NCBI RefSeq assembly: GCF_030013205.1
Contig: NZ_CP122648.1
Length of the DNA stretch: 64,000 nucleotides
Origin: Escherichia coli
GTDB lineage: Bacteria; Pseudomonadota; Gammaproteobacteria; Enterobacterales; Enterobacteriaceae
Strand: one strand, 5' to 3'
Position numbers: made by a program. Below are positions 9,001 to 12,000 of the stretch, in pieces. Every line of letters starts with the position of its first letter. The first letter of the stretch is position 1.

Positions 9001-12000
9001 ACGCCAGTTAAGCCGTGGCGAACACTGGCTGACACAACACCTGGCGGGGCGTTCTCCGCGTGAAAAGGGCATGTTACTGGCAGCGGTGGTGTTCCTGTTT
9101 AGCGTCGGATATTACGTCCTCATCTGGCAGCCGTTGAGCGAACGGATAGAACAACAGGAGACGATGTTGCAGCAACTGGTGGCGATGAACACCCGACTGA
9201 GGAGCGCCGCACCGGATATTATCGCAGCGCGAAAATCTGCCACAACAACGCCTGCACAGGTATCGCGGATCATCAGCGATAGTGCTTCCGTGCACTCTGT
9301 GGTCATCAAGCGAATAGCCGAGCGCGGGGAGAATATTCAGGTCTGGATAGAACCTGTGGTGTTTAATGACCTGCTGAACTGGTTAAACGCGCTGGATGAA
9401 AAGTATGCGCTGCGGGTGATACAAATTGATGTCAGCGCAGGTGAGAAGCCAGGGATGGTGAATGTGCAGCGACTGGAATTTGGACGGGGGTAGGTATTGC
9501 CATTTCCTTAACCCCACCTGATAACCCTTAGCCCAATGGTGAGTGCGGAACTGTCAAACCCGCTCACCGGGCTGAGTTCCGATGTAGCAAGAATTATATC
9601 CCTCCAGACCACCACGGAATGATCGACAATACTGTAGGAATTCGTTTTTCACTATGTAGTCCTTGTGCACCGACACCTTTCTCAGACTGTAAAGTTGCTT
9701 AAGTGTTTTGACACATTATGATTATTAATAGTTGTAATAAATCATTGAGTAACAATTGATAGGCCAAAACATATAGGATAATTCTTGTGTGATCTGTATT
9801 TTGTGTAGCCTGGAAATTAGTAAAATTCCTGGAGATAATCAGAAAGGGAATTTCAAATAAGCATAATAATTTCCAGGGAAACTATTCGTCGATTTTAAGA
9901 AATGTCTGCTCCGGTATATCTACTGAGGGGGGGGGTGTAACACTGGTTAAAATAAATACGCAAAATAATCAAGATGTATATTTTAATCGACGAAAATAAT
10001 TACCTTCGGGATTATTGATGCGACTTAAATAACACCATTTAAATGTGATATAAATCACAAATATGGCTGTAAAGAGGGGGCTGTAGATATAAATAAGAAG
10101 CACACGAGTGAATTTTAAATAGGGAAATAGTTTCTCAGTGAACAATTTATTGGTAATCAATCGCGTGCGTTCTGGTTTGAAACAGATTGCAGGTATTGTT
10201 ACGCATAAAATCCATGGGGGGTATTATAATCAAGTAGTTAACAGTAATAACAAAAAATAATTTCCTGAGAAATTAACTCTACATTCTAAAACGGCCAGTT
10301 TTCTGAAATTACCAGAAGACCGAATACATTCATGCCTGAAGAATGGATTAGAAGAAACGAGACGGAAATAGATCTATTTATCCCTGCGGAAATAATTTCT
10401 GCTGAAATTTTTTGCGGCTATTAAAAAGGTCAAACCGTCTGAGTAAATTTTATCCAGTTACAAATAAGCATTACCTCCAGTGTATTGGTAGCTGTTAAGC
10501 CAAGGGCGGTAGCGTACCTGAAGAGATTAGGATCACATCATCAAATGGCAAGAAGTGGATTTGAAGTCCAGAAAGTCACCGTAGAGGCATTATTTCTACG
10601 AGAAATACGAACACGCTTTGGTAAGTTCCGTCTGGGATATTTGTGGGCGATTCTCGAACCCTCTGCGCATTTGCTGATACTGTTGGGCATTTTTGGTTAC
10701 ATTATGCACCGCACGATGCCAGATATCTCATTCCCGGTGTTTTTACTTAATGGCCTGATTCCCTTTTTTATCTTTAGCAGTATCAGCAATCGTTCTGTAG
10801 GTGCTATTGAAGCGAATCAGGGGCTGTTTAATTATCGACCAGTAAAACCCATCGATACGATCATTGCACGCGCACTGCTTGAGACACTGATTTACGTTGC
10901 TGTTTATATATTGCTTATGCTTATCGTCTGGATGGCAGGCGAATATTTCGAAATAACAAACTTTTTACAACTTGTGCTTACCTGGAGTTTGTTAATCATT
11001 CTTTCATGTGGCGTTGGCTTAATATTCATGGTCGTTGGTAAAACCTTCCCTGAAATGCAAAAGGTCCTGCCGATACTGCTTAAGCCGCTGTATTTCATCT
11101 CCTGCATCATGTTCCCTCTACACTCGATTCCGAAGCAATACTGGTCATATCTACTCTGGAATCCATTAGTGCATGTCGTAGAGTTAAGCCGCGAGGCAGT
11201 TATGCCTGGCTATATCAGCGAAGGCGTGAGTCTGAACTACCTGGCAATGTTTACTCTGGTCACCCTGTTCATCAGTCTGGCGTTATACCGAACGCGTGAA
11301 GAGGCAATGCTGACATCATGATTAAGATTGAGAATTTGACGAAGTCCTATCGCACGCCAACGGGTCGACATTATGTCTTTAAGGATTTAAACATCGAAAT
11401 CCCTTCAGGAAAAAGTGTCGCCTTTATTGGTCGCAACGGAGCGGGTAAATCAACGTTACTGAGAATGATTGGCGGCATTGACCGCCCCGACAGTGGAAAG
11501 ATCATCACTAATAAAACAATATCATGGCCAGTCGGCCTTGCAGGTGGATTTCAGGGAAGTTTAACCGGACGCGAAAACGTAAAATTTGTTGCGCGGTTAT
11601 ACGCGAAGCAAGAAGAGCTGAAAGAGAAAATTGAGTTTGTCGAAGAATTTGCCGAACTCGGTAAGTACTTCGATATGCCGATTAAAACTTACTCATCAGG
11701 TATGCGATCTCGTCTGGGCTTTGGTTTAAGCATGGCATTTAAGTTTGATTATTATATCGTCGATGAAGTAACCGCAGTCGGTGATGCCAGGTTTAAAGAA
11801 AAATGCGCTCAATTGTTTAAAGAAAGGCATAAAGAGTCTAGTTTTTTAATGGTTTCACATAGTTTAAATTCATTGAATAAGTTTTGTGATATCGCATTTG
11901 TAATTTCAGAAAATGGACAGTGCAATTTATTTATGGATGTCAACAATGCAATAGAACAATATAAAAAAGATTATTTAAGTTAACAAAAGTAAAACCAATT

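Follow-up and report, generated by a model that had tools for sequence, protein, structure and literature searches.

An ops/JUMPstart element before kpsM in an Escherichia coli group 2 capsule cluster with IS1 copies on both sides of region 2

Organization of the kps locus

The 64-kb stretch of DNA analysed here (the window) comes from an E. coli chromosome and covers its gsp(beta)-kps region. Positions 9494-12400 are 100% identical to several porcine ETEC genomes, e.g. ETEC6333 (NZ_CP122600.1), and reach 99.9% identity with O139:H1 edema-disease strains; by its sequence the host resembles a porcine E. coli of the ETEC/O139:H1 type. In ETEC6333 the gene order is gspC-L, yghD, a 1051-bp intergenic region, kpsM, kpsT, an IS1-family element, four region 2 genes, another IS1-family element and, on the opposite strand, kpsSCUDEF. 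In the window, yghD (8957-9493) is followed on the + strand by the intergenic region (9494-10544), by kpsM (10545-11321), which encodes the 258-aa ABC-2 permease of the capsule exporter, and by kpsT (11318-11983), which encodes the exporter ATPase of 221 aa and whose start overlaps the stop of kpsM. Further along the + strand lies region 2 (13320-20320), co-oriented with kpsMT of region 3 and comprising four genes, for a glycosyltransferase, a GT99 beta-Kdo transferase, a 1043-aa protein that some annotations describe as an AlgX-related O-acetyltransferase, and a second glycosyltransferase. Its GC content of 30-35% is typical of an H-NS target. Region 1 (kpsFEDUCS, 22019-29957), delimited by the ORF list and the ETEC6333 annotation, is on the - strand and is transcribed convergently. 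The locus is an E. coli group 2 capsule (kps) cluster: region 3 consists of an ABC-2 permease gene and an ATPase gene with overlapping stop and start codons, and in the 100%-identical ETEC6333 locus region 1 is on the opposite strand, the K-specific region 2 is central and gsp/yghD adjoin.

The K type of this cluster may be K12/K82. The O139:H1 lineage is classically serotyped O139:K82 or O139:K82:H1 (PMC8798679), and the present locus may be linked to the K82 antigen in this way; the literature searched, including PMC13171598, yielded no description of a K82 or K12 locus. The gene for the antiterminator RfaH, rfaH, lies outside the 64-kb window, but 5425 of 5426 complete E. coli genomes have it, and the host therefore almost certainly encodes RfaH.

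The ops/JUMPstart element

An exact search of the 64-kb window for the 11-mer GGCGGTAGCGT found a single occurrence, on the + strand at 10505-10515, where simple arithmetic predicts about 0.03 exact matches by chance in the 128 kb of two-strand sequence. The sequence-only reading had recognized this motif as the ops/JUMPstart signal but had placed it at 10506-10516; the motif is as described and lies one base further to the left. With one more nucleotide it forms the 12-nt ops element GGCGGTAGCGTA (10505-10516, + strand), which is located on the non-template strand of the kpsM transcript. Against the reference consensus, the 12-nt GGCGGTAGnnTG, it matches at 11 of 12 positions: positions 1-11 are those of the consensus, including the intact bases 3-8 (CGGTAG), while the consensus G at position 12 is replaced by A, a feature shared by the seven kps leaders of the comparison. 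Bases 3-8 are those needed for the recruitment of RfaH, and a G12C change in ops abolishes the pause at U11 in vitro but keeps RfaH recruitment (PMC5995543).

The ops element constitutes the 3' end of a complete 39-nt JUMPstart element (10478-10516, + strand), which a covariance-model scan assigned to Rfam family RF01707 with 58.5 bits against a gathering score of 35, over model positions 1-38 of 38 (E-value 4.5e-12 in a 4-kb search and 7.2e-11 in the whole window). In the same RF01707 scan it was the only JUMPstart element of the 64-kb window. With an expectation of about 0.03 exact 11-mers, and with a complete JUMPstart of 58.5 bits around the site, a chance match before kpsM is excluded. 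A literature search with the bare motif returned unrelated primer sequences only. The predicted RNA fold of 10470-10549 is no more stable than that of shuffled sequences (z +0.98), which is consistent with ops acting as a signal in the non-template DNA and leaves a mechanism based on RNA structure unsupported.

Besides the Rfam match, the identification of the motif is borne out by two related elements. A 37-nt core that includes the hairpin and GGCGGTAGCGT recurs with one mismatch (97.3%) in the JUMPstart downstream of galF in the O185 O-antigen (rfb) cluster, where it is non-coding; in contrast to the kps leaders, position 12 is G in rfb instead of A, and the flanks are unrelated. In CFT073, the homologous ops, GGCGGTAGCATA, occupies the same place and differs by one substitution at the non-critical position 10, where the element of the window, unlike that of CFT073, has the consensus base. 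For CFT073 an RfaH ChIP-seq peak has been reported at the kps ops, and deletion of rfaH makes the RNA polymerase occupancy collapse downstream of it (PMC9765446).

The start of kpsM

The mechanically generated ORF list opens the kpsM reading frame at a TTG codon at 10485, which would yield a protein of 278 aa. This codon sits within the JUMPstart hairpin, and inspection of the sequence upstream of it revealed no Shine-Dalgarno element. PGAP uses the 777-nt/258-aa form, which begins with the ATG at 10545-10547, in every genome examined (ETEC6333, CFT073, JJ1886 and ten others), and the alignment with the solved KpsM homologue 8tsh_C opens at residue 2 of the 258-aa form (E-value 4.4e-61). The sequence thus supports ATG 10545, not TTG 10485, as the true start of kpsM, and the suspicion of the sequence-only reading that the start at 10485 is wrong appears well founded, also in the light of the non-coding nature of the same segment in the rfb context. 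The identity of the product is indicated by the Pfam domain ABC2_membrane (1.2e-15) and by the NCBIfam KpsM equivalog model (E-value 1.9e-55), although the 188.6 bits obtained with the latter are below its curated cut-off of 300 bits; PGAP calls the product just 'ABC transporter permease' in all the E. coli genomes looked at, CFT073 among them.

A weak Shine-Dalgarno-like AGGA, found by inspection at 10529-10532 on the + strand, 12 nt from the ATG, fits the description of RfaH targets as devoid of canonical Shine-Dalgarno elements (PMC5995543). The ATG follows the 11-mer by 29 nt and the 12-mer by 28 nt, in agreement with the earlier estimate of about 30 nt and with the published position of ops, 28 bp upstream of kpsM in group 2 clusters (PMC8960920). 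Counted from G1 of ops, the distance to the ATG is 40 nt, at the low end of the 40-67 nt published for wzx, kps and rfa in CFT073 (PMC9765446).

Conservation of the leader and candidate promoters

The entire yghD-kpsM intergenic region was aligned for seven genomes; the six sequences compared with that of the window are 80-97% identical to it. The 40-nt distance between G1 of ops and the ATG is common to all seven leaders, and the 40-column windows spanning 10470-10549 are 92-98% invariant, the best-conserved of the leader, compared to 55% invariant columns over its whole length. The longest invariant run, of 33 nt (10470-10502), covers the 5' part of the JUMPstart. A count over all complete E. 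coli genomes finds the 80-nt segment 10470-10549 conserved with at least 99% identity in 1051 of the 1687 carriers, whereas the whole leader reaches this level in just 30 of 1715 genomes, which argues that the segment from the JUMPstart to the ATG is, by its sequence, under much stronger constraint than its surroundings.

The 1051-bp intergenic region should hold the region 3 promoter PR3 and a long 5' untranslated leader. PR3 has been published as lying 741 bp upstream of kpsM (PMC8960920), but the leader length varies by about 118 nt between K types in the seven-leader alignment, so that the '-741' position is not reliably transferable to the present leader. Candidate promoter features comprise two conserved blocks, at 9790-9807 and 9821-9835, and a promoter-like TGGAAA-17-GATAAT at 9811-9839.

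The IS1 copies and the gap between kpsT and region 2

From the end of kpsT at 11983 to the first region 2 gene, which starts at 13320 according to PGAP or at a GTG at 13278, there are 1336 untranslated nucleotides with stop codons in all three frames. The gap begins, on the + strand, with an AT-rich spacer (11984-12380) that is specific to this K type and was found in just 30 of 5426 complete genomes, even by blastn with 11-base words. It is followed by a 764-bp IS1-family element (copy 1, 12381-13144, - strand), with terminal inverted repeats GGTGATAACTCC... and GGCAATGCTTCC... and an InsA-like ORF at 13087-12815, whose transposase is antisense to the kpsM transcript, and then by a second spacer of 175 bp (13145-13319, + strand). 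Beyond region 2 lies IS1 copy 2 (20570-21333, - strand), a direct repeat of the same 764 nt that differs from copy 1 by four mismatches (TGGA in copy 1, CAAG in copy 2), and next to it a pseudogene remnant (21334-22018). No target-site duplication was found at either copy or at the outer ends. A search for an IS-free ancestor of the kpsT-region 2 junction, by megablast and by blastn with 11-base words with both outer flanks, retrieved the same 30 genomes only.

On the + strand, no intrinsic-terminator-like site was detected between kpsT and region 2, and no sigma-70-like site with at least 9 of 12 matches between 12411 and 13400. Marginal candidates with 8 of 12 matches can be discerned by eye at the end of the IS1 and in the 13145-13319 spacer, and a promoter-like TTAACA-18-TATTAT with 10 of 12 matches is present at 11980-12009, in the spacer between kpsT and IS1; overall, promoter-like sites are no more frequent than in shuffled sequences (9 found, 12.1 expected). 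Region 2 has no leader ops of its own in the 64-kb window. The 8-mer GGCGGTAG occurs there four times, against 1.17 expected, and the three occurrences other than that before kpsM (22657 +, 47177 + and 58881 -) were considered as a second ops that would reload RfaH after IS1; they lie within or antisense to kpsS, mltC and an rdgB-like gene, and were dismissed as chance matches.

Of the 28 complete genomes that carry this region 2, from swine and from humans, 27 have IS1 at these same junctions, and TUM17543 is rearranged. Among the 28 genomes region 2 is 99.7-100% identical at the nucleotide level, and its four genes are annotated as intact coding sequences in the loci examined; ETEC1701 is annotated differently across region 2.

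Copy number of region 2

In WP5-S18-ESBL-08 and EC5654 region 2 is missing, and one IS1 alone joins the sequence to the left of copy 1 with that to the right of copy 2. The IS1 of WP5-S18-ESBL-08 reads TGAG at the four diagnostic positions and is thus chimeric, the crossover falling between 12535 and 12849, which is a signature of deletion by homologous recombination. On the other hand, EC556 exhibits the arrangement IS1-R2-IS1-R2-IS1, a tandem duplication of region 2, and EC571 and EC581 are apparently duplicated too, judged by two matching places in each of them. As read from these genomes, the copy number of region 2 is 0, 1 or 2, changing by recombination between IS1 copies, as in Tn9, a composite transposon flanked by IS1.

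A model for the expression of region 2

For group 2 clusters, the published model holds that region 2 is transcribed by RfaH-mediated read-through (PMC8960920; PMC9765446). Applied to the present locus, it would have RNA polymerase start at PR3, several hundred nucleotides upstream of kpsM, and transcribe the long leader, until GGCGGTAGCGTA is exposed on the non-template strand and the polymerase pauses around U11 (10515). The exposed ops DNA would recruit RfaH, which would stay bound for the rest of the transcription unit, exclude NusG, suppress pausing as well as Rho- and H-NS-dependent termination, and help to load ribosomes on kpsM, whose ATG is 28 nt further. The polymerase modified in this way would run past kpsT through the 1336-nt untranslated stretch, including the antisense 764-bp IS1, and then enter the AT-rich, K-type-specific region 2, the end of which is about 9.8 kb from ops. 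The RfaH dependence of region 2 has been shown in other K types and the geometry of the present locus fits it. We consider it highly probable that the motif represents the JUMPstart/ops in the leader of region 3 (kpsMT), within a group 2 capsule cluster of E. coli, from which RfaH would promote read-through into region 2.

In its most radical alternative the motif would be a fortuitous match inside a longer KpsM coding sequence starting with TTG 10485, as the mechanical ORF call has it. We regard the chance of this as negligible, given the Rfam E-value of 4.5e-12, the same 37 nt in a non-coding rfb leader, the use of the ATG in all annotated genomes, the missing Shine-Dalgarno element before the TTG and the alignment of 8tsh from residue 2. 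Two other explanations accept the element and differ in what happens downstream of it. The ops could serve kpsMT only, with region 2 transcribed from a promoter of its own, at the end of IS1 copy 1 or in the 13145-13319 spacer, so that IS1 is never crossed. The AT-rich spacer and the IS1 end do offer marginal 8-of-12 sigma-70-like matches, and the K5 region 2 has internal promoters. An outward promoter in IS1 has also been suggested for the capsule genes of ST131 KL112 (bioRxiv 10.64898/2025.12.15.689991). But the + strand between 12411 and 13400 is devoid of better matches (9 of 12 or more), the 9 promoter-like sites compare with 12.1 in shuffles, and transcripts begun past ops would be without RfaH, yet have 7 kb of 30-35% GC ahead, a template on which RfaH-free RNA polymerase is lost in CFT073 (PMC9765446). 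We find such a promoter, at the IS1 junction or internal, unlikely. The geometry in the sequence-only reading, by which read-through from kpsM would meet IS1 copy 1, is correct: IS1 lies between kpsT and region 2, antisense to the transcript.

Still less probable, in our opinion, is that polarity of IS1 copy 1 uncouples region 2 from PR3, leaving a poorly expressed or silent locus, i.e. a capsule cluster in decay. Classical IS1 is polar in both orientations, the 1336-nt gap is untranslated with stop codons in three frames, derivatives without region 2 exist and a pseudogene remnant is found at 21334-22018. A cluster in decay is difficult to reconcile with coding sequences of region 2 that are annotated as intact in the loci examined and 99.7-100% identical in 28 swine and human genomes, or with the existence of a lineage in which region 2 is duplicated in tandem. 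Moreover, no intrinsic terminator is predicted on the + strand of the gap, O139 edema-disease strains have been serotyped with a K antigen (PMC8798679), and the suppression of just such polarity is a described role of RfaH (PMC5995543, PMC9765446). The IS1-interrupted arrangement appears compatible with capsule expression, because the coding sequences are annotated as intact in the loci examined, the junctions are conserved and O139:H1 strains are serotyped K82 (PMC8798679). Read-through from the kpsM leader across IS1 would be the likeliest and most economical route to the expression of region 2, since there is no second leader ops, no strong promoter and no intrinsic-terminator-like site on the + strand before it.

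A more far-reaching proposal, to which we give somewhat less than even chances, is that region 2 behaves as a promoter-less cassette between two direct IS1 copies, similar to Tn9, which can be lost, kept or duplicated by recombination and is expressed only by means of RfaH loaded at the kpsM ops, which would make the polymerase indifferent to polar effects from the antisense IS1 and the 1.3-kb gap. If so, RfaH antitermination would let capsule loci tolerate junctions laden with insertion sequences, and serotype cassettes could be swapped without regulation of their own.

An ops before kpsM is known biology, a textbook feature of group 2 clusters, and in the present locus it is real and correctly read. 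It explains how the serotype-specific genes downstream, whichever they are, can be expressed from one conserved promoter and leader, a point central to the virulence of extraintestinal and porcine pathogenic E. coli and to the expression of their capsules. Its practical value here lies in the correction of the annotation, with kpsM starting at 10545 instead of 10485. The unusual point is that the RfaH-modified polymerase would cross one antisense IS1, and two or three of them in the duplicated variants.

Comparison with known systems

The presence of ops upstream of kpsM goes back to Stevens et al. 1997, as cited in PMC8960920, and obtained ChIP-seq support in 2022 (PMC9765446). The leader described here resembles the region 3 leaders of the K5, K1 and K2 clusters in its location, with kpsM on one side and yghD, of the gsp-beta type II secretion operon, on the other, in possessing the same 39-nt element, and in the same 28 nt that separate it from the kpsM ATG; region 1 is likewise convergent with regions 3 and 2. 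What differs from K5, K1 and K2 is region 2, which is that of another K type, with the GT99 beta-Kdo transferase, two glycosyltransferases and the 1043-aa protein. The distance between kpsT and region 2 also sets the present cluster apart, as its 1336 untranslated nucleotides with an IS1-family element compare with about 11 to 220 nt in eight others. JJ1886 was considered as a K5 precedent for an insertion sequence in the path of read-through and was discarded, as it does not contain the K5 region 2.

No description of the present IS1-bracketed locus was found in the literature searched. Its closest counterparts are the group 2 and group 3 K loci with insertion sequences (PMC13171598), with which it shares the presence of IS1-family elements inside the K locus, flanking the cargo of region 2. 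Unlike in those loci, region 2 is here enclosed in its entirety by two direct IS1 copies, in the manner of Tn9.

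IS1 copies and the copy number of region 2

Region 2, the block of four K-type-specific capsule genes, is bracketed by two IS1-family copies in direct repeat (12381-13144 and 20570-21333), both of which are devoid of target-site duplications. Comparison of complete genomes revealed that region 2 is present in 0, 1 or 2 copies. In the 0-copy variants the region is gone and one IS1 remains, while EC556 possesses two tandem copies in the order IS1-R2-IS1-R2-IS1. The lone IS1 of WP5-S18-ESBL-08 reads TGAG, i.e. it is a chimera of copy 1 (TGGA) and copy 2 (CAAG), which proves that region 2 was deleted in this genome by homologous recombination between the two IS1 elements.

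Between IS1 copy 2 and kpsS (21334-22018) there is a decayed + strand remnant with frameshifts and stops, which to the eye reads like a hexapeptide-repeat acetyltransferase; a Pfam search with a 37-aa fragment of it gave no match. It is confined to the same 30 complete E. coli genomes that carry the K-type-specific spacer between kpsT and IS1, and it may be a leftover of a former region 2. On the other side of region 2, a 63-aa ORF on the + strand (12206-12397) begins in the spacer that follows kpsT and extends into the end of IS1 copy 1. It is also without a match in Pfam, and may represent what is left of the 5' part of a gene that IS1 truncated.

Gene content of region 2 and annotation of KpsM

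Of the four genes of region 2 (13320-20320), one encodes a GT99 beta-Kdo transferase and two encode glycosyltransferases of GT1 type; the product of the remaining one is a protein of 1043 aa, which is described in some annotations as an AlgX-related O-acetyltransferase. The K12 (=K82) antigen is an O-acetylated Rha-Rha-Kdo repeat, and K82 is the type assigned to O139 strains from edema disease. We presume that the gene set would fit this repeat, and regard the assignment as putative.

With the NCBIfam 'KpsM' equivalog model, E. coli KpsM (10545-11321) reaches 188.6 bits and so falls short of the curated cut-off of 300 bits. PGAP therefore gives it no more specific name than 'ABC transporter permease' in all E. 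coli genomes examined, including CFT073. This looks like a naming gap rather than a biological difference.

The kpsM leader and ops-like sites

The 5' leader of kpsM contains a G9 homopolymer (9927-9935) specific to the K-type lineage of the window, at the site where other kpsM leaders carry GGGATGGTGTTGGT. Its length varies between 8, 9, 10 and 11 G across otherwise near-identical genomes, which could reflect either true slippage or homopolymer sequencing error. About 100 nt upstream of ops, the RfaH-recruiting element, lies a weak terminator-like hairpin (10386-10411; GCGGAAATAATTTCTGC followed by TGAAATTTTT), at a position too early for RfaH to act; the divergent leader of Esc11 does not share it. 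It is the only terminator-like site in 9400-13400, where shuffled sequences gave more (3.4 against 1).

Downstream of kpsF (about 30000-47000) the window lacks several kb of length relative to the porcine ETEC genome ETEC6333, and at mltC and rdgB positions derived from the latter are ~7 kb out of register. Hence the window is distinct from ETEC6333, with different pheV-island or IS content.

The GGCGGTAG core occurs four times in the window, compared to 1.17 expected. The three extra cores are located in or antisense to coding sequence: two are antisense, in kpsS (22657-22667) and at the 3' end of mltC (47177-47184), and the third is within an rdgB-like gene (58881-58888). They were rejected as ops sites and attributed to chance, which agrees with reports that CFT073 has many intragenic ops-like sites without function.
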